From contig CAWIIB010000009.1 of NCBI GenBank assembly GCA_963836075.1, positions 1,280,001-1,344,000 on the forward strand: 64,000 bases of DNA, in the 5' to 3' direction. How positions within the stretch are numbered: the first letter of the stretch is position 1; each line of letters begins with the position of its first letter. Under the pieces are notes generated by a model that did no database searches, was not told the origin of the DNA, and saw only the letters and a list, made by a program, of their open reading frames with translations. The position numbers were made by a program, and so were the translations under genes. Positions 32,213-50,532 of this stretch are shown here, piece by piece. This DNA comes from an uncultured Acidobacteriota bacterium (GTDB taxonomy: Bacteria > Acidobacteriota > JAQAZP01).

Positions 32213-33559
32213 CTAGTTTCCAGTGGTGCTGCAGGAGTCGCTGTCCGTGCTGCCCGACGGTGAGTAGGGCGGCTGGTTGTACGGCGCTGCCGTGATGTCG
32301 GTGCCGATGAGGGTGAACGTGTTCACCCCGTGCACTCCGGGCACGTCCGGCAGGTTGACCCCGAACGGCGTGTTGTAGCAGTAGCCGGGGCTCACGTTGG
32401 TGGCGCCGGCCCGCCAGTTGAAATAGGTGGTGCCGCTGGCGAGGGTCACGTTGAGCTTGCCGTGGAGCCGGCGGGTGAACCAGTCGTCGTTGCAGAGCTG
32501 GGGCCACAGCTGCACCGTGTAGGGCAGGGTGCCGCTTTCCGGGACACAGCCGATGATCGTGTGCATCGTGTCCCCTGACAGGGTGACGGTCAGCGTCAGG
32601 TTGTAGTCGTTTTCCGCCCCGGAGGCGCCGATGACGCGGGTGTAATAGGTGCCGGCCGGGAGGCCGGTCCCCGACACCGTCTCGTTGTCGGTGGAGGTCG
32701 TGGCGATATCCAACAGGGACTGGGCCGGGTTGTAGAGGTAGAGGCTCAGGTTGCCGCTGGCGTGGGTGAAGGTGATATCCACCTGGACGTTGGCTCCCTC
32801 GCTGACGCTGAAGGAGAAATAGTCCTCGTCGCCGGAGCAGATCTGCAGGTTGTTGATCGTGCCGGCGCTGATTGCACTGGCCCCGGCGAACGAGTCGTTG
32901 TCCTCGTAGCCGTCGTCGGTGCAGCCGCCGCAGACACCGTAGATCGCCTGGATGCCGGCGATGTCGTCGGAATGCAGGGTCCGGGCGTAGGTCTGGCCCG
33001 GGCTGCCGTAGCCATACATCGTTTTGGCCGAGTCACCGCCGCCGTAGAGGTCTGCGAGGCAGAGGTAGTGGCCGAACTCGTGGGTCGCGATGTTCCAGAT
33101 GTCGAACTGGCTGTACGTTGGGGTGCCCACGCCGTTCCAGGTGTAGCTCTGGTCATTGAACACCAGGTCGTTCTCGGTGACGTTGCCGCCTGAGGTCCAG
33201 ATGTAGGTGGCCGCGATGTAGCCGCCGCCGTCGGGCGGGGTGGTATCGAAATAGACCAGGTTGATATTGTTGTAGGTCACGCTGGTGCCTGTGGTGGTGC
33301 CGCCGTAGGTGAACTCGAAGCAGGCATTGGCGCCGTTCCAGGCGCCCGCGCCGGCCTGGATGGCGGCGATCTGTTCGGCGGCGGTGCCGGCGGCGGAGTC
33401 GACACAGTTGGGGTTGATGCGATAGTTCTCGCCCATCGGGCTGGACTGGTAATCCCAGTCATAACCGCAGAGGCCGTAACCGGCGGCGTTCTGAGCCGGG
33501 CCGGCCAGGGTCAGCAGCAGGCCGACCAGGGCGATCAGGGTAATCCGGGTGAATTTCAT
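32213..33559 (-). CDS. Secreted matrixin-like (metzincin) metalloprotease + PPC-like domain + NQPP C-terminal domain
   Basis: Signal peptide, ATHEFGHYLCLAD, Met-turn KTMYG, DDIAGIQAIYG, DDGYEDND/DEDYFSF (PPC-like), C-terminal TDITAAPYNQPPYSPSG. Confidence 0.88.
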   Translation of the reverse strand: MKFTRITLIALVGLLLTLAGPAQNAAGYGLCGYDWDYQSSPMGENYRINPNCVDSAAGTAAEQIAAIQAGAGAWNGANACFEFTYGGTTTGTSVTYNNINLVYFDTTPPDGGGYIAATYIWTSGGNVTENDLVFNDQSYTWNGVGTPTYSQFDIWNIATHEFGHYLCLADLYGGGDSAKTMYGYGSPGQTYARTLHSDDIAGIQAIYGVCGGCTDDGYEDNDSFAGASAISAGTINNLQICSGDEDYFSFSVSEGANVQVDITFTHASGNLSLYLYNPAQSLLDIATTSTDNETVSGTGLPAGTYYTRVIGASGAENDYNLTLTVTLSGDTMHTIIGCVPESGTLPYTVQLWPQLCNDDWFTRRLHGKLNVTLASGTTYFNWRAGATNVSPGYCYNTPFGVNLPDVPGVHGVNTFTLIGTDITAAPYNQPPYSPSGSTDSDSCSTTGN

Positions 33560-33637
33560 TCTCGATATCCTCCTTCTCTCATTCGCTGGGCGGAAAGGCA
33601 AATATGTGCGCACATTCATCATCGGGTGCCGATCCGT

Positions 33638-35374: not shown

Positions 35375-36091
35375 TTACAGCAGGCGTTCACGGGCGTGGG
35401 TGCGCCTGAGGGCCAGGCCGAGGAGAGCGAAGGCCCCGCCCAGCACCAGCATGCGGTTGATCACCGCGATGCGGATGAATTCTTCGTAGGGCAGGTCGCG
35501 GGCCAGTTCCTGGATGTTGATGAAGGGATAGATGATCGACTCGTTCCAGCCGCCCTGGGTGAAGAAGACCAGGAAGAGGACAATGCTGGACAGCAGCGCC
35601 CCGCCGTTGGTGGAGCGGGTGACGATGGAGAAGAGAACCGTCATGTTGCCGAAAAAAAGCGCCGGGACCATGCTGTTCAACAGCACCTGGAGAAAGGGGA
35701 AGTCGGTGATGGCGACATAGGTCAGCACGGCCAGCATCAACTGGAGAACGAAGATGGCGATGTAGACGGTCAGTGCCTTGAGCAGCCAGACCCGGTAGCG
35801 CGATCGGGAGATGGCGAACATCACCTCGATGGTCCCGGTTTCACGCTCCTGGAGCACCAGTTGCATGCCCAGCAGGATGGCCAGGAAGACGCCGGGGACG
35901 GCCAGGATCATGTTCAGCACGTCCGTCGGCCCGTAGGGCTCATTGTCGCCAAAGGCGTTCATCAGCCAGATGATGACGAAGTAGACCAGTCCGCCCACCA
36001 GCAGGAACCAGTAGCGGGTGGAGAAGGTCACCTTGAGGCAGAGCCGGAAGAGCAGCAGCCACGACCCGATTCTTCCACGCATCTTTGCCAT
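35375..36091 (-). CDS. ABC-2-type permease subunit
   Basis: About six TMs, QERETGTIEVMF motif, last gene of the transporter operon. Confidence 0.8.
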   Translation of the reverse strand: MAKMRGRIGSWLLLFRLCLKVTFSTRYWFLLVGGLVYFVIIWLMNAFGDNEPYGPTDVLNMILAVPGVFLAILLGMQLVLQERETGTIEVMFAISRSRYRVWLLKALTVYIAIFVLQLMLAVLTYVAITDFPFLQVLLNSMVPALFFGNMTVLFSIVTRSTNGGALLSSIVLFLVFFTQGGWNESIIYPFINIQELARDLPYEEFIRIAVINRMLVLGGAFALLGLALRRTHARERLL

Positions 36092-36194
36092 CGCACGTTT
36101 CTCTCTTTCTTCCCCCGTCAGGTCGGGCCGTGTTGCTCCTGAGCGACGTCGGAGGTCCGCCGACCGGAGCGAAGAGCAATATGGCCTGACCCCC

Positions 36195-39100
36195 TTACAC
36201 CGGCGCGGTTCCGCCGCGCAGGTAGAGATAGGCGTCCTCGAGATTCGGCTCCGCGTCTTCCGCGGCCAGGCCTTCCGGCGGGCCGTCGGCCAGGAAACGC
36301 AGCCGGATACGGTCAAAGCCCTCGCCGATGTGGTTGACCACCTTCAGCCGTTTGGACAGTTCGGGCAGTCGCTGCTCTTCAGTCACCGCCTCGAAGACCT
36401 TGCCCCGGGTGCGGTCGATCATTTCCTCGACGGTGCCGTCAAAGACCACCCGGCCCTTGTCGATCACCGCCACCCGGTTGCAGGTGCCGGAGATGTCCTC
36501 CACGATGTGGGTGGAGAAGATGACGATCCGCTCCTTGGCCAGCTCGGCCAGCAGGTTGCGGAACCGGATCCGTTCCTTGGGGTCGAGGCCGGCGGTGGGC
36601 TCGTCCACCACGATGATCCGCGGCAGGTGCAGCAGCGCGGTGGCGATCCCCACCCGCTGCTTCATCCCCCCGGAGTAGCCCTTCAGTTTCTCGTCCTTCC
36701 GTTCGAAGAGGGCCACCCGCTTCAGCACGCCGCTGACCAGTTCTTCCCGCTCCTCGCGGTCGTAGATCTCGTTGAGCAGCGCGTAGTAGTTGAGCAGTTC
36801 CCAGGCAGTGAAGTTCTCGTAGACCCCGAAGTTCTGCGGCAGGTAGCCCACCAGGCTCTGAACCGCGTCACGGTGCTCCCGGGGGTCGCGGCCGTTGATC
36901 GCCACCGTGCCCCGGCTCTGCTCGTAGATGTTGCAGATCACCCGCATCAGGGTGGTCTTGCCCGCGCCGTTGGGCCCCAGCAGACCGAACATCCCGGCGC
37001 CGATGTCCAGGGACAGCCCGCGCAGCGCCGCCACCCGCTCCTTCTCGTGACCCACCCGTGGAATGACACTGACCAGTCGCCGCCAGGTGCGGGCCAGCCG
37101 CTTGAAGATGTTGCCGCCCCGGCCCCTGGTGTTCGTTTCGCCGCTCCGCAGTTGGCGGCCACTGCTCAGGGCCATGGCCGCCAGGCCGAGGATGGCGGTG
37201 AGGGTGAGGGTGAAGCCGTAGTGCATCTGGCAGGCCACGTGGGCCTGGACCAGGGCCAGGGTTGCCAGCGCAAGGCCGAAGACCAGGTTCAGCCAGCGGG
37301 TTTTCGAGAAGGGGATCGGTACCCCGGGCGCCGGTTCCCCACCCCGCCGCAGCCGCCACAACGCGGTGATGGTGACGATGAAATCGCGGACGAAATACCA
37401 GGTCACTCCGATGAAGACAAAGAGCCAGAACCGGTTCTCGAAGTAGAGCAGGAGGTAGAAGAGCAGGGCCAGCAGGGGGATCTTCCAGATCAGGTTGACC
37501 GCCAGCCGGCGCCTCGTTTCCATGGGCATGCCGCGCTGCCGGGCGTGCTTCAGCCAGCGACCGTACTGCTTCCAGCCGCGGAGGAAGGGGCCGTCCTCAC
37601 CGTAGACTTTCTTCAGCTCCCGCACCGCGATGTCCAGTGGCTGGTCTGCACCAAAGATCTCCCGCCGCTCTTTCCCCCGGGCCAGCCAGAGGCCAAAACG
37701 GACCAGGCCCAGGCCGGCAAACCAGATCGGCAGAAGGAAGATGATCCGCCAGACCTCGGAGTCGATCCAGCCCAACTTGAAGTAGAGTGCCCAGATCACC
37801 ACGCCGGCCCCCAGGGTGCCGGCCAGCGCCCAGGGCAGGCCCAGAGTCTCGCGTATCCAGCGGCCGATGAAACGGAAGGAGAGAAAGCCCATGGGGATCA
37901 GCAGCAGGGTGCCGATGGTGGAGGTGGCCATGCCGCCGATCACCGCGATGGCGAAGGGCGGCCAGATCTCGTTCTCGCCGCCCATGCGCATGGCCAGCGG
38001 CAGCATGCCGGCGATGGTGGTGGTGGCGGTCATGACCACCGGCCGGAAGCGGGCCCGGCCCGAAGCGATGATCGCCCGTTCGGGGCGGAAACCCCGTTTG
38101 CGCACCAGGTGCCGGGCGTAATCGATGAGCAGGATGCCGTTGTTCACCACCATGCCCAGCAGCACCAGCAGGGCGAGAAAGACCAGCGGCCCGATGCCCA
38201 CCCCGGTGAGCGCCAGCAGGATCAGCACCCCGATCATCGCCATGGGGATGGTGAAGAGGATCAGCAGCGGGTGGGCGAACGACTCGAAGGAGGCGGCGAG
38301 GATCATGTAGACCAGGATCAGCGCCACGTAGAGCATGAACTTCCAGACGTTCTCCTCCTCGTCTTCCCGCTCGGCGGTGAGGGTGTAGCCCCGGGGCAGG
38401 GGGATGGAGAGCAGCAGGTCGTCCACCGCGGAGCGCAGTTCATCCAGCCGGGTCTGAGTGCCCAGGACCTCATCCTCATAGCCGTAGTAGACACGGATGC
38501 GGTGGGTGCCCTGGTGGCGTTTGAGGCTGGGCAGTCCGGCTTCCTGTTTGAAATCCATCAGCTCGGTGACCCGGACGAATGAGCCGTTGGGCGTGGGGAT
38601 GGAGAGGTCGCGCAGGTCGCGGAAGCTCCAATCACCTTCCTCGCCCAGGCGAACCTGGATCTGCATCTCGTTGTCCTGCCGGTCGCGGTAGGGGTAGGTG
38701 ACCTGGTCCCCTTCCCGGCGGGCCATCCAGAGCAGGCCCATCACCTGCTGCATGGAGAGGCCCCAGGCAGAGAGGTCCTGGTAGCGGGCCTCCAACCGCA
38801 CCTCGGGGGTGACGTCGTCCACGTCCATGCGAATGGTGCGGTCATCCACTCCTTCGATCTGTTCCAGCCGGTATTTCACCTCGTTGGCCAGGTCCACCAG
38901 CCGGGGCATCTCCTCGCCGGTGAGCACCACCGTCTCCACGGCGCGGGCCAGGCCCAGCGCCGCCGCGCCCCCCTCTTCTTCGTCGCCGCCGCCGGCGCTC
39001 TGGAACTGCGAGCGGTCGAACAGGATCGTCGCCCCGCTGACCTCCTCGGTGCGGTCCTTCAGTTTGTTGCGGATCGCACCCAGTGAATCGTCGGACGTCC

Positions 39101-40961
39101 GTTCGTCTTTCGGCAGCAGCTCCACGGTGATAAAGGCCTCGCCCTCGCGGATGGTGGAGCGGGTCATCTTGCGGTCGGGCAGGTCGAGGGTCATGGCCTC
39201 CACCTGGGCGGTGACCGCTTCGGTGGACTCCAGGTCGGCCCCCTCGGGCATCTCCAGCTTCATTTCGATCCGGCTGTCCGGCGGCTGGCTGCTGCCGTAG
39301 AGGTAGAGGATCACCGGCGTGGTGATCAGCACCGTGAGCATCAGCACGGCGAAGAACATGACCGTGGTCAGGACCTGGTGCCGGGAGCACTGTTTGAGCA
39401 GCAGGGTGTAGATCTGCAGGATGCGCTGGGGCCGTTTGCGGTCCGCGGCGGGATCGAAACCCTGGCCGGACATTGTCCGCTCCCCGCGCCGGCCCAGGCG
39501 GCTGGCCAGCATGGGGATCAGGGTCACCGCCACCAGCAGCGAGATCAGCAGGGGGAAGATGATCGCCAGGGCAAAGTCGTTGTACAGCTCGGTGAACTCG
39601 GTCTTGACCCAGAGCAGCGGGGTGAAGACCACCACCGTGGTCACCGTACCGACGATGATCGCCTTGAACACCTCGGAACTGCCGGTGACCGCCGCTACCA
39701 TCCGGCTGAGCCCCCGCTCGCGGTGCCGGGTGATGCTCTCCAGCACCACGATGGCGTTGTCCACCAAGAGACCGATGGAAAGGGTCAGGCCGATGAGGGT
39801 CAGCACGTCGATGGCCAGGCCGGCGGCGGCCATCAGGTTGAAGGTCAGCAGCAGGGAGACCGGGATGGCCAGTGAGACCACCACCACCGGGCCGGGCCGC
39901 TTGAGGAAGATCAACAGCACCAGCAGGGCCAGCAGGCCGCCGCTCAGCGCCAGCTTCTTCACCCGGTTGATGTCCTTTTCGATCAACTCCGCGGCGTCGA
40001 AGGCGGTGGTGATCCGCACCCCCGGCGCGGCCAGCTCGTCGTTGATCTCCGCGATCTCCTGGCGCAGCAGCTGGGCCACCTTGATCAGGTTCGACTGCTC
40101 GTCCTTCTGGATCAGGATGCTCACCGTGGGGTGCCCGTCCACCCGCGACATCTGGGTCTGGCGGTCCGGTGCCTGCTCCACCCGGGCCACGTCGCGGAGG
40201 AAGACCATTCCGGCCCCGGTCGTCAGCGGCAGGTCGCGGATCTCCTGCAGCGAGGTGAAGCGGCCCTCCACCATGGCGAACTGCCGGCGGCCGTCCACCT
40301 CCACCTCGCCCACGAACTCCCGCCGCTGGTGGTAGCCGTTCAGAGTGGCCAGCACCTGGGTGGGCATGATGCCGTAGGAGCGCAGGCGGTCCTCGTCGAG
40401 AGTCACCTGCACCGCCAGCTGCCGGCCGCCAAAGACCTGAACGCTGACCACCCCGTTCACCGACTCCAGCTGGGGCCGGATCTTCTCCTCGGCCAGCCGG
40501 CGGACAAAGGGCAGCCCCCCCGGGCCGGCCACGTTGAGCTGCATGACGAAGTTGGAGAAGGCCGAAGTGTCGAAGCGTTCGACGCGCAGCGTCGCCGTTT
40601 CAGGCAGCAGGCCCACAAGCCCGTTGGCCTTCTGTTCCAGCTTGAGATAGGCGTAGTTGAGGTCGGTGCCCAGCTTGTACGAGACGGTGATCATCCCGTA
40701 GTTCTGGTTGGAGACGGCCTCGATTTCCTCGATGTCCTCGAGGGTGGAGATCTCGGCCTCCAGCCGCTCGATCAGGTCCTCCTCCACCTTCTCCGGCGAG
40801 GCGCCGGGGTAGCCGGCGATGACGAACATCTTGGGGTAGATGTAGTTGGGGATCAGCTGCACCGGCAGGGTGGTGTAGCTGATCACGCCCAGCACCCCCA
40901 GGGCGATGAAGAACATCACCGTGGTCACCGGGCGCTTGATGGCGAGGGTGGGGAGGTTCAC
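36195..40961 (-). CDS. AcrB-family RND permease fused to extra TM helices and an ABC ATPase domain
   Basis: RND motifs ([42 protein letters not shown]), then [31 protein letters not shown] and STH in one open frame of 1588 aa. Confidence 0.92.
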   Translation of the reverse strand: [1588 protein letters not shown]

Positions 40962-43900
40962 GCGTCCTTCCCCCTGCCGGCGGGCCGCAGGCGGTCGATC
41001 AGGTCATAGGCCACCGGCAGCACCACCAGGGTCAGAATGGTGGAGGTGACCAGCCCGCCGATGATGGCGTAGGCCAGCGGCGCCCGCAGTTCGGCCCCCT
41101 CGCCAAAGCCCAGGGAGAGGGGCAGCAGGGCGAGGATGGTGGTGGAACTGGTCATCAGGATCGGCCGCAGCCGGGCCTGTCCGGCGGCCAGCAGTGCCTC
41201 CTTGCGCTTCATCCCCCGGCGGCGCAATGTGTTGACGAAGTCGATGAGGATGATCCCGTCGTTCACGGCGATGCCGGCGAGGATGATGATGCCGATGAAG
41301 GCCATCACCGACAGCGGCAGGCCCGCGAAATAGAACAAGGCCGCCACGCCCACCCCGGCCATGGGGATGGTGAGCATGATGGTGAAGGGATGGACCAGCG
41401 ACTCGAACTGCGAGGCCATCACCATGTAGACCAGCAGGAGGGCCAGCAGCATGGCGAAGCGCAGCTTGTCGAACGACTCCTGGCGTCGCTGTTCTTCGCC
41501 GCCCACCAGGAAGCGGTAGCCCCGCGGCACGTTCATCCCCTCGAGGCGTGAGCCGATTTCGCCGCTCACCTCACTCAGCGTCACCCCTTCGGCCAGGTCG
41601 GCCTGGACCAGGGCCACCCGCGACTGGCCGCGGCGCAGGATCTCCCGCGGGCCGGTCTCGCTCTCCACCCGGGCGATGTCCTTGAGCAGGATCCGGGTGC
41701 CGGTGGGGTTCTCGATTTCCAGGTTGAGCAGCTGGTCGAGGTTCATCATCGGGTGGCGGATGGCGATGTCGCGGTCCTCGTCCTCGGCGCGGAAAATGGA
41801 GATCTCCTCACCGTAGAGCTTTCGCCTGACCAGCCGGGTGATGGTGGCCACGTCGAGACCCAGGCTGGCCGCGGTCATGCGGTCGATGTGAATCGCCAGT
41901 TCCTCGCGGCCGCCCTGGAAGCTGGTGCGCACGTTGTAGATGCCCTTGCCCCCGGCTTTCATCTCCTCCAGCTGGGCCGCCACCCCGTCACTGATCTCCC
42001 GCAGCCGGTCCACGTCCTGACCCCGCACCTCGATGCTCACCGGAGCGTCACCGGAGCCGATGGTCTGCTGCAGGGCGGTCTCGCCGAGATTGTATGTGGT
42101 CTCCAGGCCCGGGACGTCGCGCAGCACCGGGTCGATGGCGCCGATGATGGCCGAGGTGTGCAGGTCGCGTTCGGCGAAAGGCTTGAGCGAGACCAGGACC
42201 AGCGAGGTATTCTCGTCCCACACCTCTTCGGTGAGCAGCTCGTCCTCCAGCCGCCGTTTGCCGATGTCGCTGTAGACCGCGGTGATCTCTTCGCCGAAAT
42301 TCTCCAGCAACAGGTCCTCCACAAAGCCGGACACCGCGGCGGTGCGCTCCACCGGGGTCCCCTCGGGGAGCACCAGCCGGATGCCGAACTCGCCCTGGTC
42401 GGCCCGGGGCAGGAACTCGGTGCCGCTGCGCCTGAAGGCCTCGGCGGCAAAGAGGCCGAGGACCAGGGTGATGACCACCACGATCAGCTTGTGGTTCAGG
42501 GCCCAGACCAGCAGGCCGTTGTACGCCCTGCTGCGCACCACGTGCTCCGAAGCCGGGCCGGTCGCCGCAGTTCGTTTCTGTTTCAGCATCCGCGAGGCGA
42601 GCATGGGGATCAGCACCATGGCCACCACCAGCGAGCAGAGCAGCGAGATGCTCACCGTGAAGGCCTGTTCCTTGAGCAGCTCGCCGGTGATGTCGCCGAT
42701 GAAGACCACCGGCAGGAAAACCACGCAGGTGGTCAGGGTGGAGGCGAAGATGGCGCCGCCCACTTCCGAGGCACCGTCGATGGCCGCTTCGATCTTTCCC
42801 TTGCCCGCCTGGAGGTGGCGATAGATGTTCTCGATCACCACGATGGCATTGTCCACCAGCAGGCCCACCCCCAGGGCCAGGCCGCCGAGGGTCATGATGT
42901 TGAGGCTCAACCCGGCGAAATACATCAGCACGAAGGTGGCCACGATGGAGAGGGGGATGGCCAGGGCGATGACCAGGGTGGCGCCGAAGCTGCGCAGGAA
43001 GAGAAAGAGGATCACGATGGCCAGCAGCGCGCCGATCAGCGCCTGCTCCTCCACCTCGCGGATCGATCCGGTGATAAAACGGGCCTGGTCCCGGACCACC
43101 TGGAAGCGCACGCCGGGAAGCGAGCGGGACAGCTGGTCCAGGCTGCGGCGCACGTCGTCGCTCACCATCACCGTATTGCTGCCCCCCTCCTTGTGTACCG
43201 AGAGGCCTACCCCCTCGGTGCCGTTGATCCGCACCAGGTTGCGCACCTCCTTGTCCCCGTAGTAGACCCGGGCCACCCGGGAGAGGGGCACCGGTACCTT
43301 CAGCGGGTCGAAGGCGGTATTCTGGGAGACGAGGTCCGAGGGGGCCTTGCTGCGGTCGAGGTAGGCCACGGTGAGGGCGCGGAGCTGGTCCAGGTCGGAA
43401 AACCGGCCAACCCCCTTGATGACGTAGATCTTGCCCTCCTCCTCCAGCGTGCCGCCGGAGGTGTCCATATTGGCCTCCCTGACCCGGGAGGCCACGTCGT
43501 CCACGGTGATGCCGAATGAGTCCAGCAGGAACTCGTCGGTCTCGACGATCACTTCCCGCTCGCGGCCGCCGGAAATGCGCACCGCGGCCACACCGCGCAG
43601 CCGCTCCAGGGCCGGGCGGACATAGTCCTCGGCCAGCCGCCGCATTTCGTCCAGGTCGGCGCTGCTCTCGTCTTCGGCCGAGGGGAACATCCCCACCCGC
43701 AGCACCGGTGCGGCCTGGGGGTCGAAACGGCGGATGCTCAGGTTGTCCACTTCGCGGTCCGCCTGGAGGTAGCCGATATTCTTCTGCACCTCCAGCAGGG
43801 CAAAGTCCATGTCGCTGTCCCAGTAGAACTCCACGGTGACCATGATGCTGCCCACCCGGGAGACAGAGGAGACACGGGAGACGCCGCTGATGGTGCTCAG

Positions 43901-44113
43901 CTGGGACTCCAGCTGCTCGCCGAAGACGTCCTCCATCTCCCGCGGCGGCCGGTTCCCCGACTCGAGCACCACCACCACCTTGGGGCTGGAGATGTCGGGC
44001 AGCAGGTCGATGCCCAGCTTGTCCAGGGAGATGTAGCCGAGGAGCAGCACGCCGGTGAAGATCATCACCACGGTGACCGGGAAACGGACCGCGAGGTTGG
44101 CTATGGCTTTCAT
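40958..44113 (-). CDS. AcrB/AcrD/AcrF-family RND permease
   Basis: [47 protein letters not shown]. Confidence 0.95.
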   Translation of the reverse strand: [1051 protein letters not shown]

Positions 44114-45195
44114 CAGGAACTGACCTTCACCGGTGTCTTGTCTTTCAGGGTCTCGTAGCCCTGGACCACCACGCGCTCGCCGGCCTCGATGCCGGAGAGG
44201 ATCTCCACCCGCTCCTCATCCTCCAGACCGGTGACCACCTCGCGCATCTCGGCCTTCTGCCGCGAGACGACAAAGACCGACGGCCGGTTGTTGCGCACCA
44301 CCACCGCGTGCCGCGGCACGACCAGGGCGTCCTCCCGGGAGCGGGTGACGATGTCGGCCTTGACGAACATGCCCGGCCGCACCAGCCCCTCGCGGTTCGA
44401 AAGCAGTACCTCGACGCGGAAGGTCCGTGACTGAGCCTGGATGGTGGGGCTGATGTAGCGCACCACGCCCTCGAAGACCTGGTCAGGGTAGGCGTAGTTG
44501 GAAACCCGGACCGCCATCCCCTCCTTGACCCTGGCGATGTCGCCGCCGGGCAGCTCCAGGTCGGCCAGCACCCGGGAGAAGTCCATCACCTCGGCCAGTT
44601 CTTCCCCGGCGGTGACCTTGGCCCCGTCCACCTCGCGGGTCAGCCAGGTCAACCGGCCGCTGATCGGGGCGAGGATCCGGGTCTGTTCCTCGACGATCAG
44701 GGTGTTTTCGTAGTTGTAGCGGGCGGTGGCCAGCGCGCTCTCGTAGTTCCTCATCTCCTGTTCGGAGACGAAGCCTTCCTCGAAGAGCCGTTGATAGCGC
44801 TGGTAATCATTCTCCGCTTTCTGCAACTCGGCGCGGCGGGCGTCGATGCCGCTCTTCTTGTTCACCCGCGTCTCTTCACTGTCCAGCAGGGCGATGACCT
44901 GGCCCTGTTTCACCGGGTCGCCCTCGATAAGCCGCCGGCCGTTGCCGCCCAGCCGGCCCAGGTTCAGATATCCGGTCATCGGCGCGTCCAGCTTGACCTC
45001 CTGGATCGCCCGCACCGAGCCGGTGGTGGTGAGGTGTTCCTCGATGCCGGCGCGGCCGGCTTCCTCCACCCGCACCGGGATTTTCACCTCCAGGCCGGCC
45101 TGGGATTCCGGTTCGCCGCACCCTGCAGTGAGGAGGAGCAGCGGAATGAGGCAGAGCGCCGCGACAATTGAGACCTGTGGGCATCTGGTGGTCAT
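44113..45195 (-). CDS. RND periplasmic adaptor (membrane fusion) lipoprotein
   Basis: Lipobox LTAGC, lipoyl halves (EGDPVKQGQVIA, ILAPISG), coiled hairpin, VRPGMFVKA. Confidence 0.92.
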   Translation of the reverse strand: MTTRCPQVSIVAALCLIPLLLLTAGCGEPESQAGLEVKIPVRVEEAGRAGIEEHLTTTGSVRAIQEVKLDAPMTGYLNLGRLGGNGRRLIEGDPVKQGQVIALLDSEETRVNKKSGIDARRAELQKAENDYQRYQRLFEEGFVSEQEMRNYESALATARYNYENTLIVEEQTRILAPISGRLTWLTREVDGAKVTAGEELAEVMDFSRVLADLELPGGDIARVKEGMAVRVSNYAYPDQVFEGVVRYISPTIQAQSRTFRVEVLLSNREGLVRPGMFVKADIVTRSREDALVVPRHAVVVRNNRPSVFVVSRQKAEMREVVTGLEDEERVEILSGIEAGERVVVQGYETLKDKTPVKVSS

Positions 45196-48100
45196 TCGGT
45201 TGCTCCTTCCTTGTCCTCGTCCGCGAAGGTGAATTTCACCGCGTCGGCGATCACCGCCCCGTCGGCCTGGTCGCTGAGGGTGACCACCGCCTCGTTGTCC
45301 GGAGAGAAATAGAACGTGCCGAGGCTGTTCCAGCCGATCTCCGCGACGGTGGCGTCGAGGCTCACCGTCTCCGGTCCGTCCTCGTGTTCGATGGTGTAGC
45401 TGTAGTTCGTACCCAGCTTCCGGTCGTCGGAGCGGGCGCGGAGGTTGCTCCCCTCCACGCCGATGAAGGCAAAGACCTCGTAGCGCCCCCGGCGGGGCAG
45501 TTCGGCGACCCAGCGGGCCGAAAACTCGCCCTCGCCGCCGCCCTTCATTTTCATGGTGTGGTTGTACAGGCCGTAGGCCTCGTCGCGGGTCCAGTTGACC
45601 CATTCGTCGGGGATGCCCCTGAGGTAGTCTTCCAGCTGGGGCCCGCCCTCCTCATCGTCGTCGTCACCCCTTGATGACCGCCAGCGCAGCAGCGAGCTGC
45701 CGGTTTCGCCGGCCAGGCTGAAGCCCGGGTCGAGATCATCGACGATCACCGTGAGCTCGTCCTCCGATTCACCGGTCTCCAGCACCGCCACCCGTTCGAA
45801 CGGTTCGGCCTGCACCGGCTCTTCGGGCAGCTTGAAATCCTTGGTCAGCGGTTCCTTGTTCCGGGCCAGGATGGGGTCCACCACCAGCCGTACCGGCTCG
45901 TCAGGCACCACCAGCGCCACCTCCACGGTCTGCAGGCCGTCGAGGCGCACCCGCCGTTCCACTTCGTCACCGCGGGTTTCAAAGTAGAGGATGGCGAACC
46001 CGGAAGCGTTCTCCTCGTTGGCCAGCTCCACCCGCACCTGGTAGAGCGGCGCTTCGCCGTCGGTGGCGATACGGTAGGCTTCGCTGTTCTTGATCCGGTA
46101 GCCCGGCAGGTCGGTGCTGTGGGTCCACTGCTGGAAGAGCCAATCCACGTCCTGGTCGGTCACTTCGGCGGCCAGCACGCGCAGGTCCTCCATGGTGTAC
46201 TGGCCGTACTGGTGGCGCTGCACCAGGCCGTTGACCAGCGCACGGAAGGCCTCCTCGCCGAGATACTCGCGCAGGGTGACCACGAAACCGCGGCCCTTGT
46301 GTCCCATCACATTGTAGAACAGCTCGGGGTCTTCTTCCGGCTCCATGTCGGCCAGTGGCGTGGCCTTGATCGACTTGTAGACCTGGTCGATGTTCACCGT
46401 GGCGTCGTAGAACGCCTCCTGCCAGCTGGAGTTGCCGGTGAAGCGGGCCTGGATCCCCTGGCCCAGCACCTGCTGGAAGTTGGTCATCATGTAGACCGAG
46501 GCAAAGGGCCGGGTCCCGGTGACTGTTTCCTTGAGATAGTTGTCGAGGCAGTAGCCGGCAACAGGGTAGAGCGGGCCGCTGGGGTCGAGACGGAAGCCCC
46601 AGAAGTTGGGCATGGCGTTCTGCAGCAGGCTGCCGCTGACCACATCGAGGTCGAAGAAGAGCTTGAGCATGTCGACCTTGATCTGGGCGGCGTCCACCTC
46701 CTCGTCGGCCTCTTCCGCCTGCTCGGTGCGAGTTTCGAAGGCCCGCTCGAAGTTGGCCGAGAAGAAGCCGGCCTCCTTGAGCATCACCACCCCCGGCTGG
46801 ATCAGCGGGTTGGGGCTGTCCCAGCCCTCCGAGTAGGCCCGCATGGCGCCGGGGACCTCCACCAGGCTCAGCGCCGGGTAGGGGTAGTCCAGACCGGTAC
46901 GTTCCTGGATGTCGGAGAGCTTCTTTTCCAGCTCTTCGTGGATCCTGTCCCGGGCGTCGTTGAAGAATTCGATGTTGGCCGCGTGGCTTTCGCTGAAATA
47001 GAAGGCCAGCTGCATCGGCCCCACTTCGCCCTTGATCACCTGGTACTCGCCGCTGTTCACCGAGAGGCCGGGCACCGGCACATCGGAGCGGTAGGTGAAG
47101 ATCGCGTTCCCGCCCGAGTCATCCCGGGCCGTCATGGCGCCCTGGGTCACCGCCTGCTGTCCGTCCGGGACGGTGATCCGCAGGCCGGCGGTGGCGAAGT
47201 TGTCCGGGCGCTTGTCCGGATAGGTGTAGCCGTGGTCGACGTTGGGCGAGGGATACCACCTCGCCTGGGGCAGCAGCACCGAGTAGCGCGAACCGATGTA
47301 GGACGGCAGGTAGCCGAGAATGGCCACGTTGTTGCGCGCCTGGCCCTTCAGTTCGTTGATTTCGTTCTCGCTGTTGAGGAAGATGGTATTCAGCGCCAAA
47401 GTTCCGCCATAGGCCACGGTCACCTCGGTTTCGCTGCCCGGCGTCAGGGCCGGGATGTTCACCACCAGGGTGGTGTCCCCCCGCTGGAATTCCAGCGCGC
47501 TCCCCCCGGCGCCGGTGACCGACTCCACGTCGAGGCCGCTGTTCAGCACAAAGGTCAGCTTCTCCTGGGATTCGGCCCCGTCGTTGCGCACGGTCATCCG
47601 GGCGGTGGCCGTGAGCCGGCTGCCGCGGGCCAGGTCGAGGTCCATGTCGTAGTGGGTCACCCGGGTCAGCGGGTTCTCCAGCAGCGCCTGCTGCTCGGCG
47701 CGGGCCGCCTCGCGCAGGGTGTAGTCGTTGTGTCCCGACCAGAGGCCGTAGCCGACGTAGCAGAGGGCCAGGATGGCCGAGACGGCGGCGGTGCCCAGCA
47801 CCGGCCGCGAAACCCGGTCGTCCTGCTTGAGCCGCGGGTAGAGCATGGCGGTGAGGGCCAGCAGCAGCAGGGTCAGGGCGATGATATATCCCCGCTGGAA
47901 CAGCAGCAGCCCGAAATCGGTGAAACCGATCAGGTCGGAGTGGAAGGTGGTCAGCGAATAGCCGCTGAAATCAACCAGCGGCACAAACTGGGCCTTGATC
48001 CAGCGGCCGAGGCTGATGAAGACCACCAGGTCGATGATCACGTAGGCGTGGGCGATGATGATCGCCGCCACCCGGCTTTTGGTCACCAGGGTGAGGAAAA

Positions 48101-48611
48101 AGACCAGGGCGACGATAAAGGCCAGCCCGGGAAGAATGGTGACGAAGAGGTGCATCAGGTAGGGGCCCAGACGGAAGGGCAGGTGGAAGAGCGGGATGAA
48201 CCGCAGGCAGACCGAGACCAGGGTGAGGATCAGGGCCGTGGCAAAGGTGGGGACCAGCGCCCCGAGGAATTTGCCCCAGACCAGCCCGAAGGTGCTCAGC
48301 GGGCGCGAGTGCACCACGCCGTCCACCCGGCATTTGCTGTCCTTGCTCAGGAAGTCATAGCAGAACCAGATCAGCAGCACGGCGAATAGCGTGATGAACT
48401 GGGAGTAGACGATCTGCAGCACCAGCCCGGCGGAGAGCAGCCCGATGGTGCCCGAGTAGCCGGAGAAGAAGTTGTGCAGGAAGGCGTAATAGATGTTGAT
48501 GATCACCAGGAAGAGCAGCCCGAGGCAGACCAGGATCCAGAACTTCCAGGTGCGGCGGAGGAGCCGGCTCTCGTACTTGGCCAGGCCCATGATTCCGGCA
48601 AGGTCAATCAT
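45192..48611 (-). CDS. ABC-2 permease fused to an M1-aminopeptidase-like domain (no HExxH) and a C-terminal golvesin/xanthan-lyase-type beta-sandwich
   Basis: N-terminal TMs with HSRPLS...WGKF, then VTHYDMDL, ARWYP, DYPYPALSLVEVP, KG..F...LREYLGEEAF, WLFQQW, and the C-terminal GRYEVF...GWNSLGTFYF...IADAVKF. Confidence 0.8.
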   Translation of the reverse strand: MIDLAGIMGLAKYESRLLRRTWKFWILVCLGLLFLVIINIYYAFLHNFFSGYSGTIGLLSAGLVLQIVYSQFITLFAVLLIWFCYDFLSKDSKCRVDGVVHSRPLSTFGLVWGKFLGALVPTFATALILTLVSVCLRFIPLFHLPFRLGPYLMHLFVTILPGLAFIVALVFFLTLVTKSRVAAIIIAHAYVIIDLVVFISLGRWIKAQFVPLVDFSGYSLTTFHSDLIGFTDFGLLLFQRGYIIALTLLLLALTAMLYPRLKQDDRVSRPVLGTAAVSAILALCYVGYGLWSGHNDYTLREAARAEQQALLENPLTRVTHYDMDLDLARGSRLTATARMTVRNDGAESQEKLTFVLNSGLDVESVTGAGGSALEFQRGDTTLVVNIPALTPGSETEVTVAYGGTLALNTIFLNSENEINELKGQARNNVAILGYLPSYIGSRYSVLLPQARWYPSPNVDHGYTYPDKRPDNFATAGLRITVPDGQQAVTQGAMTARDDSGGNAIFTYRSDVPVPGLSVNSGEYQVIKGEVGPMQLAFYFSESHAANIEFFNDARDRIHEELEKKLSDIQERTGLDYPYPALSLVEVPGAMRAYSEGWDSPNPLIQPGVVMLKEAGFFSANFERAFETRTEQAEEADEEVDAAQIKVDMLKLFFDLDVVSGSLLQNAMPNFWGFRLDPSGPLYPVAGYCLDNYLKETVTGTRPFASVYMMTNFQQVLGQGIQARFTGNSSWQEAFYDATVNIDQVYKSIKATPLADMEPEEDPELFYNVMGHKGRGFVVTLREYLGEEAFRALVNGLVQRHQYGQYTMEDLRVLAAEVTDQDVDWLFQQWTHSTDLPGYRIKNSEAYRIATDGEAPLYQVRVELANEENASGFAILYFETRGDEVERRVRLDGLQTVEVALVVPDEPVRLVVDPILARNKEPLTKDFKLPEEPVQAEPFERVAVLETGESEDELTVIVDDLDPGFSLAGETGSSLLRWRSSRGDDDDEEGGPQLEDYLRGIPDEWVNWTRDEAYGLYNHTMKMKGGGEGEFSARWVAELPRRGRYEVFAFIGVEGSNLRARSDDRKLGTNYSYTIEHEDGPETVSLDATVAEIGWNSLGTFYFSPDNEAVVTLSDQADGAVIADAVKFTFADEDKEGATE

Positions 48612-49491
48612 TGTTCTCCTCCTCCAGGCCACCCATGAAGTTGATGTAGGCGTCCTCCAGGTTGGGGTTCACCGGTTTCAGCTCCAGGCCGTTGGCCGAC
48701 CCCTCGCCCACCAGCCGCAGGTGCAGCCGGTCGCCCCGCGGGGCGGTGCTGATCACGCTGAAGCGCCTCTTGATTTCCGACAGGTCTTTTTCCTCGGCCA
48801 CCGTCTCCCAGGCTTTGCCCTCGGCTTTGGCGGTCAGTTCCTGGGGTGAGCCGTGATAGAGCACCTTGCCCTTGTCCAGGATCACCAGGTTTTCACAGGT
48901 GCTGGAAATGTCGCCGACGATGTGGGTGGAGAGGATGATAACGATATCCTTGCCGATGTCCTGCAGCAGGCCGCGGAAGCGGATCCGCTCCTCGGGGTCG
49001 AGACCCACGGTGGGTTCGTCGACGATGAGCAGTTTCGGCTCGCTGATCAGCGCCTGGGCGATGCCCAGCCGCCGCAGCATGCCGCCGGAGAGGGCCTTTA
49101 CCTTGCGCCGGGCCGCGTCGGCCAGCCCCACTTTCTCCAGCATGTCGTCCACCCGCTTGTCCCGGCCGGCCTTGGGCATGCCGTTGAGGCGGGCAGTGTA
49201 GTCGAGGAACTCCTGGGCCTTCATCTTGGGGTAGACCCCGAACTCCTGGGGCAGGTAGCCCAGCCGCGAGCGGATCTTCCGCCGGTCCTTCGACACGTCG
49301 AGGCCATCGATGGTCACCTCGCCGGAGGTGGGTTCCAGCAGGGTGGCCAGGATTTTTATCATGGTGCTCTTGCCGGCCCCGTTGGGGCCCAGCAGGCCGA
49401 ACATGCCGGCGGGAATCTCCACGTTGACCCCGCTGAGCGCCGTCACGCCGCCCTTGTAGGTTTTGGTCAGGTCCCGGATAGTGATAGCCAT
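48604..49491 (-). CDS. ABC transporter ATP-binding protein
   Basis: GPNGAGKST, YLPQ, LSGGM, VDEPTVGLDP, STH. Confidence 0.95.
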   Translation of the reverse strand: MAITIRDLTKTYKGGVTALSGVNVEIPAGMFGLLGPNGAGKSTMIKILATLLEPTSGEVTIDGLDVSKDRRKIRSRLGYLPQEFGVYPKMKAQEFLDYTARLNGMPKAGRDKRVDDMLEKVGLADAARRKVKALSGGMLRRLGIAQALISEPKLLIVDEPTVGLDPEERIRFRGLLQDIGKDIVIILSTHIVGDISSTCENLVILDKGKVLYHGSPQELTAKAEGKAWETVAEEKDLSEIKRRFSVISTAPRGDRLHLRLVGEGSANGLELKPVNPNLEDAYINFMGGLEEENND

Positions 49492-49690: not shown

Positions 49691-49773
49691 TCGTGAATAC
49701 CGGTTTCCCTGTGGACGTAATTATGTACAATAGAAAGCCACAGTGACAGCAGAAGTCAGCGGAGGGCAGAACA

Positions 49774-50532
49774 GTGAGATGTGAACAGTGCGGCAACGAG
49801 TACGACGCCATGGACGGGCACGGCCAGTGTCCCTTCTGCGGCAAGATCCCCGGGTTCGGGGCGGACAGTCCCGGGACGGAGCCCCGGACGGATACGGCCC
49901 GCGGGGACTGCGCCTGGGAGCGCCGCGGTTCCTGGTTCGATTTTCCGGCGATGTTCGAGATGATCCGTGCGGTCCTTTTCGAGCCCTCCGCCACCTTCCG
50001 GCGGATGAAGACATCGGGCGATCTGGCGTCGCCGGTTCTCTTCGCCGCGCTGTTGGGAACCGTGGGGGTGCTGGGCAGCCTGGTCTGGAACGTCATGTTT
50101 CAGAGCATGGGGTTCCTCTCCCAAAACGCCGCTATGGAGGAATTTTTCTTCTCCACCGGCATCATCATGGTCATGGCCATCCTCTCCCCGCTGTTGACCA
50201 TTATCGGCACCTTTATCTCGGCCGGGATTCTCCATCTCTGCCTGATGATCGTCGGCGGGGAGCGCAACGGGTTCGAAGCCACCTACCGGGTGGTGGCCTA
50301 CGCCACCGGCGCCACCGCACTCTTCCAGTTGTTGCCCTTCTGCGGCGGGCTGGTGGGCGGTATCTGGGCCATCGTGACCCAGATCAACGGTGCCCGGGAG
50401 ATGCACGAGACCACCACCGATAAGGCCCTGCTGGCGGTGCTGCTGCCGCTGCTCCTCTGCTGCGGCTGTATCGCCGTCCTGATGTTCTTCGGTGTTGGCG
50501 CGGGCATGCTGGCCGCCCTGGCCGAGAGATAG
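49774..50532 (+). CDS. Yip1-like membrane protein with N-terminal zinc ribbon
   Basis: CxxC...CxxC, WE, VLFEPSATF, FEATYRVVAYA, about five TMs. Confidence 0.75.
   Translation: MRCEQCGNEYDAMDGHGQCPFCGKIPGFGADSPGTEPRTDTARGDCAWERRGSWFDFPAMFEMIRAVLFEPSATFRRMKTSGDLASPVLFAALLGTVGVLGSLVWNVMFQSMGFLSQNAAMEEFFFSTGIIMVMAILSPLLTIIGTFISAGILHLCLMIVGGERNGFEATYRVVAYATGATALFQLLPFCGGLVGGIWAIVTQINGAREMHETTTDKALLAVLLPLLLCCGCIAVLMFFGVGAGMLAALAER

Follow-up and report, generated by a model that had tools for sequence, protein, structure and literature searches.

An RND permease covalently joined to an ABC ATPase in a conserved six-gene cluster of an uncultured Acidobacteriota bacterium

Resistance-nodulation-division (RND) pumps are driven by protons and ATP-binding cassette (ABC) exporters by ATP, and the two are normally separate machines that are thought to cooperate at most indirectly. 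A locus in the genome of an uncultured Acidobacteriota bacterium (GenBank assembly GCA_963836075.1, contig CAWIIB010000009.1) raises the question of whether they can also be parts of one apparatus. The window analysed here is a stretch of 64,000 nucleotides (positions 1,280,001 to 1,344,000 of that contig), and the minus strand of its positions 35375-49491 carries six genes of the same orientation, designated 5' to 3' A1, B, C, D, E and F (Table 1), of which E encodes an RND permease and an ABC ATPase domain in one chain. An initial annotation made from the letters of this stretch had described six co-oriented genes, namely an ABC ATPase, a permease with a peptidase-like portion, a membrane fusion protein (MFP) lipoprotein, an RND permease, an RND::ABC-ATPase fusion and an ABC-2 permease; all six lie where it placed them, and matches to Pfam and NCBIfam agree with the architecture it described. 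As will be argued below, the chances seem to us evenly balanced that these genes specify a single trans-envelope exporter, of which they would supply the inner-membrane and periplasmic components, and in which a tripartite RND pump would be joined to an ABCA/DrrA-like ABC-2 module.

The anatomy of E is the point of departure. Its RND portion matches PF00873 at 613 bits over profile positions 3-1020 (cut-off 28), and its ATPase, or nucleotide-binding domain (NBD), matches PF00005 at 94.9 bits (cut-off 25). The nearest solved structures of the RND portion are the HAE1-type pumps AdeJ/AdeB, MdtB, MexB and AcrB, and E stays below the NCBIfam cut-offs for RND_permease_2 (541 of 1250 bits), MdtC (314 of 1774) and MdtB (302 of 1584). 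The positions of the proton relay, D401-N402 in transmembrane (TM) helix 4, N940 in TM10 and R973 in TM11, are invariant in 10 fused proteins. If D407, D408, K940 and R971 of AcrB are taken, as we assume, for the reference relay, E keeps the first aspartate and the arginine, while the second aspartate and the lysine are substituted; D shows the same substitutions, as do three RND paralogs of the genome that carry no fusion. Because these unfused paralogs hold equal residues in TM4, TM10 and TM11, we see no sign of E having lost proton coupling, and the idea that the fused RND had lost it is unsupported. In the NBD, the motif residues K1335, Q1376, S1430-G1432 (SGG), D1453-E1454 and H1485 are invariant in 10 of 10 sequences.

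Between these two portions lies an unusual linker. After TM12 the chain of E runs, in order, through two predicted TM helices, a conserved strand, an amphipathic helix, four further predicted TM helices and the rest of the ATPase; the AlphaFold2 (AF2) model from which this is read has a moderate predicted local distance difference test score (pLDDT 67.6), so that only the order of the elements is used. The strand, (I/V)xVRxLxK(I/V)YG at residues 1108-1121 (nucleotides 37599-37640), has K1118, Y1120 and G1121 invariant among the 10 fused proteins and matches the N-terminal strand of A1, ITIRDLTKTYKGG. The first strand of an NBD presumably bears the adenine-stacking aromatic residue (the A-loop), and because in E this strand precedes the four TM helices, the ATPase domain appears to be split by a four-helix membrane insertion. 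That the linker might be a degenerate ABC-2 core was considered and rejected, the hhalign probability being 0.2% against F and 1.4% against the core of B. In a more distant genome, G401, the fused protein is 1437 residues long and has a short linker without a comparable TM block, which argues that the tether itself is the conserved feature.

Among 61 genomes of the same phylum, comprising that of the window and 60 relatives, the fusion is free of stop codons over RND portion, linker and ATPase in nine, at 33-100% identity (G000, which is the window's genome, G001, G002, G054, G039, G004, G022, G005 and G053). In G023 it was a part match in the genome search and of full length by tblastn on the locus, and in G021 it is split across two contig ends; with these two counted, the carriers come to 11 of the 61. 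A query with the linker only recovered at least 18 of 401 genomes sampled from the phylum, which is a lower bound because the query overlooked three known carriers, and these concentrate in four families (f1, 2 of 2; f3, 10 of 15; f21, 3 of 11; f38, 2). Outside the phylum the fusion occurs in at least those metagenome-assembled genomes (MAGs) labelled Bacteroidales, Porphyromonadaceae, Sunxiuqinia and Pseudomonadales, and in G401; it is rare in the class around the Sunxiuqinia MAG, where 3 of 401 sampled genomes match, one of them weakly and with many stops. The frame is continuous in at least 14 genomes besides the window's, and contigs of two sediment metagenomes, each from a different study, span it from about RND residue 999 to Walker A with no indel listed. 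The sequence occurs in sediment and salt-marsh habitats, and no RNA dataset was among the sequencing runs listed as holding it. A linker search of 5.8 billion proteins gave 13 matches, all of them with both PF00873 and PF00005 and bearing automatic names only; a search of 1.84 billion representatives gave 31, of which those of 1565-1587 residues are fusions. Among the 31, in a search that did not extend to the class of shorter homologues, there is no clear stand-alone linker-NBD protein, the matches below that length looking like fragments at contig ends. The source labels of distant homologues are Gemmatimonadetes and Acidobacteriota. The fusion named in the initial annotation is thus borne out by nine stop-free copies and by the contigs of two studies that bridge it, and from these comparisons we judge the RND::ABC fusion to be a rare but genuine, selected architecture.

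Three observations concern particular copies. In the genome of the window the A1-B-C-D-E-F cluster occurs a second time in its entirety, on a 29-kb contig (C3; L031:114-14369). Most pieces of this copy are 72-96% identical to those of the window and the front of B 47-50%; it is broken into many frames, and may stem from another strain, from contamination or from an assembly with many errors. In G022 the first ~100 residues of the E frame (L025:7937-8240) cannot be aligned with the other fused proteins and the tblastn match starts at query residue 82, the 5' end being either frameshifted or read from a wrong start. In the MAG labelled Pseudomonadales (L041), D, E and the NBD of E adjoin family f38 of the window's phylum in trees, a placement that points to horizontal transfer or to a mis-binned contig.

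The neighbours of the fused gene are conserved with it. It had been suggested at the outset that synteny and the combination of RND with ABC_tran be sought across genomes, and the gene set proves to be conserved across families and phyla, with its order shuffled in G401. Five or six genes of the cluster are adjacent in 10 of the 10 relatives whose loci were fetched, with the caveats that G023 has two B-like genes and an A1 beyond the stretch fetched, and that the cluster of G021 is interrupted by contig ends. F was recovered by tblastn in six loci and as aligned open reading frames in three further ones, and D and E are adjacent in every case. The two B-like genes of G023 are arranged in tandem (881 and 1176 residues; L028:508-6569), ahead of the adaptor gene.

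On the RND side, the adaptor C exceeds the cut-off of the TIGR01730 RND_mfp model (216.3 against 94.9 bits) and has the lipobox LLTAGC, and D matches PF00873 at 774.7 bits over profile positions 1-1020 (cut-off 28). The proton-relay positions of D read D-N in TM4, N-D in TM10 and R in TM11, and its NCBIfam scores, like those of E, are below the cut-offs (RND_permease_2, 669 of 1250; MdtC, 430 of 1774; MdtB, 414 of 1584). In a tree of 38 RND rows, 12 fused RNDs form one clade with a Shimodaira-Hasegawa-like approximate likelihood ratio test (SH-aLRT) support of 100 and 14 D partners form another with 99; the two share their branching order for the loci in common and are weakly sister (72). The tree left out the E of G022 (out of register), that of G021 (split between contigs) and those of L044 and L045 (truncated), and no conclusion rests on its outgroup row L019, which comes from the unpublished genome G048. 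D and E have co-diversified, as expected of obligate partners, and the mirrored clades speak indirectly for the suggestion, made when the locus was annotated, that they are paired RND subunits. The heteromultimeric RND pump MdtABC-TolC of Escherichia coli offers the obvious comparison: there, as here, the genes of two RND permeases that are paralogs come after an adaptor gene, and the outer-membrane factor (OMF) is encoded elsewhere in the genome, as is presumably that of the present pump. Among the NCBIfam and Protein Data Bank (PDB) relatives of D and E, MdtB and MdtC belong to those with the best scores. ABC parts are absent from MdtABC, however, whereas E has its six-TM linker and ATPase domain; in addition, neither D nor E has the other as its closest paralog, and neither reaches the MdtB or MdtC cut-offs.

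The same annotation held that the system has no outer-membrane factor, which is correct for the operon in the window and for its lineage but not for the system as a whole. There is no OEP/TolC match in the window, and the nearest one adjoins another RND 13 kb beyond it; outside the window about 14 places of the genome together hold 29 OEP-domain matches, and an OEP gene stands beside the cluster in none of five other same-phylum genomes checked. A look for co-occurring outer-membrane partners in other lineages, which the annotation had also advised, found an OEP gene within the cluster in three of them: it separates B from C in L040 and L045, the Bacteroidota MAGs labelled Bacteroidales and Sunxiuqinia, and follows the fused gene, at the cluster end, in G401. 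These in-cluster genes point to a pump of probably tripartite type, the OMF gene of which would be unlinked in the lineage of the window; tolC of E. coli is likewise unlinked from acrAB. Outside the window, contig C9 of the same genome has a 1525-residue frame (G000:C9:127648-132225; L121:1149-5726, minus strand) with ACR_tran at residues 4-1024 and then two OEP repeats, downstream of an adaptor gene; this is either an RND::OMF fusion or the result of a lost stop codon.

The ABC side consists of two ATPases and two permeases. A1 matches PF00005 at 119 bits (cut-off 25); its Walker A, Q-loop, signature, Walker B with catalytic glutamate, and H-loop motifs are present by reading. Its nearest NCBIfam families are DrrA and GldA, both of which score under their cut-offs, and its nearest solved NBDs are those of the lipid exporters ABCA3/7/4/1 (E-values of 4e-63 to 3e-55), with NosF next (1e-39). 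A1 is 45% identical to the NBD of E over 275 residues, the C-terminal domain included. In the NBD tree 13 fused NBDs cluster together (SH-aLRT 88), the 14 A1 rows can be set apart by a single branch (78), and A1, the fused NBDs and one unresolved paralog are split from five other ATPases of the genome (93). A1 and the NBD of E are paralogs.

B, whose probable start is the ATG at 48611, scores 23.2 bits against ABC2_membrane_2 (PF12679), under the cut-off of 27.2, and its homologue in L045 scores 40.2. Hydropathy predicts six TM helices plus a seventh, and the AF2 model (pLDDT 75.9; predicted template modelling score, pTM, 0.69) has a six-helix core, a long seventh helix and then the ectodomain. 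Pfam gives a partial match to Peptidase_M1 (1.4e-7) and one to Golvesin_C (5.7e-19), and Foldseek aligns the ectodomain with the M1 aminopeptidases IRAP, ERAP1 and APN (E-value 1e-19, about 640 columns, 13% identity). The HEXXH, HXXXH and GXMEN motifs were found in none of 11 B homologues, and the ectodomain accordingly has an M1-peptidase fold that lacks a catalytic site. Of the former label "peptidase-like", therefore, the M1 fold stands, and any zinc or exopeptidase motif is missing in 11 of 11 homologues. F passes the ABC2_membrane_2 cut-off (29.7 against 27.2), and its family alignment of 13 rows has conserved ER(D/E)xxT(L/I)E and NR motifs; a search of the F profile against the PDB gave nothing credible (best E-value 0.35). 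F and the membrane core of B are paralogs, aligning by hhalign at 96% probability (E-value 2.6e-9, 216 columns). The pairing of two ATPases with two permeases that had been put forward for this locus is in keeping with both of these paralogies.

The gene layout is that of a single unit. Stop and start codons overlap at four of the five junctions, as had been claimed for most of them and as is read directly from the sequence: A1 and B by 8 nt, B and C by a shared ATGA, C and D by 1 nt, and D and E by a shared GTGA, E and F being instead ~100 nt apart. Because the Yip1-domain gene upstream of A1 runs divergently, the unit begins at A1; the gap of 282 nt between the two genes holds a sigma-70-like match, and a promoter and terminator scan of the locus gave matches at consensus level only. 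The spacer between E and F is ~10 nt in G001, and in contigs of two sequencing runs (X7 and X8) it is replaced by ~25 different letters. The flanking genes stand beside the cluster in two same-genus genomes and not more widely, and since they are kept only within the genus, the genomic context gives no hint of a substrate.

Table 1. Features of the locus and its surroundings, in window positions.
Feature	Position	Strand	Basis
A1, free ABC ATPase, 295 aa, NBD and ~70-aa C-terminal domain	48604..49491	-	ABC_tran 3e-34
B, ABC-2 permease core, ~820-aa periplasmic domain and C-terminal Golvesin_C	45192..48632	-	Pfam, hydropathy, AF2
C, RND-type membrane fusion (periplasmic adaptor) lipoprotein	44113..45195	-	HlyD_D23 1.6e-24, HlyD_3
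D, RND permease 1, unfused partner paralog, 1051 aa	40958..44113	-	ACR_tran 1.7e-232
E, RND::linker::ABC-ATPase, 1588 aa, single open frame	36195..40961	-	ACR_tran and ABC_tran
E residues 1-1030, RND permease 2	37872..40961	-	ACR_tran residues 5-1029, 1.1e-183
E residues 1031-1320, linker with six predicted TM helices	37002..37871	-	AF2 element order, hydropathy
E residues 1321-1588, ABC ATPase domain and C-terminal domain	36195..37001	-	ABC_tran residues 1314-1457, 8e-27
F, small ABC-2 permease of 238 aa with six predicted TM helices	35375..36091	-	ABC2_membrane_2 29.7 bits
E-F spacer, ~100 nt, specific to window strain	36092..36194	-	comparison with G001 and metagenome contigs
Candidate sigma-70-like promoter upstream of A1	49720..49749	-	consensus match only, 9/12 positions
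Yip1-domain membrane protein, divergent, upstream neighbour	49774-50532	+	domain match
M10 (matrixin) peptidase, secreted-type, with PPC domain, downstream neighbour	32213-33622	-	domain match

For the complex, its stoichiometry, the relay of the substrate and the class to which that substrate belongs, we infer the following arrangement. The RND side would comprise the adaptor C and the co-evolving paralogs D and E, probably as a mixed trimer of the kind formed by MdtBC, and would use an OMF encoded elsewhere in the genome. A1 and the NBD of E, acting on B and F, would most likely make up a single heteromeric ABC transporter, and the covalent tether of E would hold this module at the RND trimer. 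ATP hydrolysis would then move an amphipathic, probably lipid-like substrate from the cytoplasm or the inner leaflet to the periplasmic face, where the ectodomain of B would hold it, and the proton-driven RND pair would take it up and expel it through C and the OMF. SecA-SecYEG-SecDF and ArsAB likewise combine an ATPase step at the cytoplasmic face with a proton-driven step, and SecDF belongs to the RND superfamily. They are an analogy for the manner of working only: save for a distant likeness of SecDF to the RND TM regions the proteins are unrelated, and they differ from the present system in having no covalent fusion and other substrates.

The arrangement of the genes in G401 bears most directly on the unity of the ABC module. 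Its order is MFP-A1-F-RND1-B-RND2::NBD-OEP, with all seven parts present, so that A1 adjoins the F-like permease and B the fused E, and the neighbours of NBD and transmembrane domain (TMD) are swapped relative to the window. This swap favours, by inference, a single heteromeric ABC module over two fixed NBD-TMD pairs. Several considerations nevertheless weigh against the single exporter postulated here. The identification of the small permease of G401 as an F orthologue depends on a weak similarity (E-values of 1e-6 against F and 0.04 against the core of B), together with its fit to the F motif alignment. Each NBD gene of the window precedes a permease gene (A1-B and E-F), as is usual where two ABC-2 systems are separate; in four of 10 relatives A1-B runs divergently from C-D-E-F, and this pair is thus an independently invertible unit. 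Both ATP sites are canonical, with no degenerate site that would hint at an obligate heterodimer, and the A1 and E-NBD groups have modest support (below 95) in the NBD tree. The contacts among A1, B, F and E, and with the RND trimer, are a proposal drawn from the genes, and the class of the substrate would derive solely from the likeness of the NBDs to ABCA and of the RNDs to HAE1. A complex prediction for the B core (residues 1-320) with F, run without controls, scored 0.01 in both runs, which speaks neither for nor against their pairing.

In its most specific form the single exporter would be a dual-energy pump, in which A1 and the NBD of E form an ABCA-like heterodimer upon B and F that is mechanically integrated into a mixed D/E RND trimer. 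A lipid-like or other amphipathic envelope component would be transported in one cycle whose steps, either consecutive or gating each other, are powered by ATP hydrolysis and by the proton gradient, and the TM helices between the first two beta strands of the NBD would anchor this domain at the membrane. We offer this form tentatively, and would sooner expect it to fail in some part than to hold in all. An arrangement that we consider unlikely, while taking it seriously, is that of two homodimeric ABC-2 transporters, one formed by A1 and B and the other by F together with two fused NBDs, contributed by the two E protomers of a D1E2 trimer; of these transporters only the latter would belong to the RND pump, A1-B being a co-regulated accessory exporter or a motor for the periplasmic domain. 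Such an arrangement is consistent with the NBD gene preceding the permease gene in each pair, in the window as in 10 of 10 relatives, with the inversion of A1-B as a unit in four of these and with the full catalytic motifs of both NBDs, and a 2:1 trimer, as suggested by the stoichiometry of MdtB2C, would supply exactly two fused NBDs. It is at odds, however, with the opposite pairing in G401, where A1 is followed by the F-like gene and B precedes the fused E; moreover, A1-B adjoins RND genes at every locus examined across phyla, and NBD and TMD are both duplicated pairs, like the halves of heterodimeric ABC transporters.

A lower probability attaches, in our view, to the ABC part being no translocator at all and having instead a mechanotransmitting or regulatory role like that of MacB, LolCDE or FtsEX, its ATP-driven movements being passed to the ectodomain of B or, through the tether, to the RND, so as to gate, load or assemble the RND-adaptor-OMF conduit. 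The large periplasmic domain of B, with a peptidase fold and no catalytic motifs, would suit a role in binding or as a scaffold, the fused NBD has a fixed connection to TM12 of the RND (by a short linker in G401 and the six-TM linker in the window), and an RND that retains the proton-relay residues of its unfused paralogs need not rely on the energy of ATP. The TMDs, by contrast, are ABC-2 (type V-like) cores, the known members of which with ABCA-like NBDs export or flip their substrates, and they show no Pfam or NCBIfam likeness to the MacB and FtsX families. It is improbable that the RND pump and the ABC exporter or exporters function independently, co-located by chance and with a fusion that is a tolerated accident without coupling. 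RND and ABC efflux genes are often neighbours, and the coupling is here a deduction; the fusion is kept, however, at 30-39% identity across lineages with invariant ATPase motifs, all fused RNDs fall in a single clade, the full list of parts outlasts the shuffling of gene order, and the linker search returned RND-linked or fragmentary proteins with no clear stand-alone form. That the long E frame might be an artefact of assembly or frameshift joining two genes, as the metagenome-style assembly with its 4.6% contamination and the frame-broken copy on C3 could lead one to suspect, is refuted by the same continuous frame in the other genomes and in independent metagenome contigs of two studies, and by the conserved residues of the linker itself.

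Returning to the single exporter, its ABC module most resembles ABCA1/3/4/7 and DrrA, GldA and NosF, which supply the closest solved NBDs and NCBIfam families of A1. Like the ABCA proteins it is built of two paralogous halves, and its type V-like membrane core bears a large extracytoplasmic domain; unlike them, its parts are separate polypeptides, its ectodomain has an M1-peptidase fold, and that ectodomain follows the seventh TM helix of B, whereas that of ABCA lies between TM1 and TM2. The model cut-offs of DrrA, GldA and NosF are not reached. YbhGFSR of E. coli is an adaptor with an ABC-2 exporter of two different permeases (PMC7190983); its MFP gene, like that of the present cluster, goes with an ABC-2 exporter that has two ATPase domains and two permeases that are not identical. 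It is not known to include an RND or a permease with a large periplasmic domain, and its NBDs are fused to each other rather than to an RND. MacAB-TolC is an ATP-driven tripartite pump (PMC2613632, PMC5985334) and likewise brings together an ABC ATPase, an MFP adaptor, a TolC-type OMF and a permease with a periplasmic domain, but MacB is a four-TM FtsX-type protein fused to its own NBD, in contrast to the ABC-2 cores and RND-type MFP (TIGR01730) found here. None of the MdtABC, YbhGFSR, MacAB or ABCA/DrrA types is known to unite RND and ABC parts, let alone covalently, and full-text literature searches, judged on titles and abstracts and not covering supplements, found no description of an RND-ABC fusion.

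The locus contains two unusual structural objects, an ABC ATPase domain with four TM helices apparently inserted after its A-loop strand, and an M1-peptidase fold that seems to have been recruited as a non-catalytic periplasmic domain of a permease. A covalent fusion that is conserved in distant lineages with its motifs intact argues that in some bacteria RND and ABC are parts of one apparatus. This makes the coupling of export from the cytoplasm or inner leaflet to periplasmic capture and expulsion across the outer membrane directly testable, for efflux and for the export of envelope lipids and glycolipids alike.

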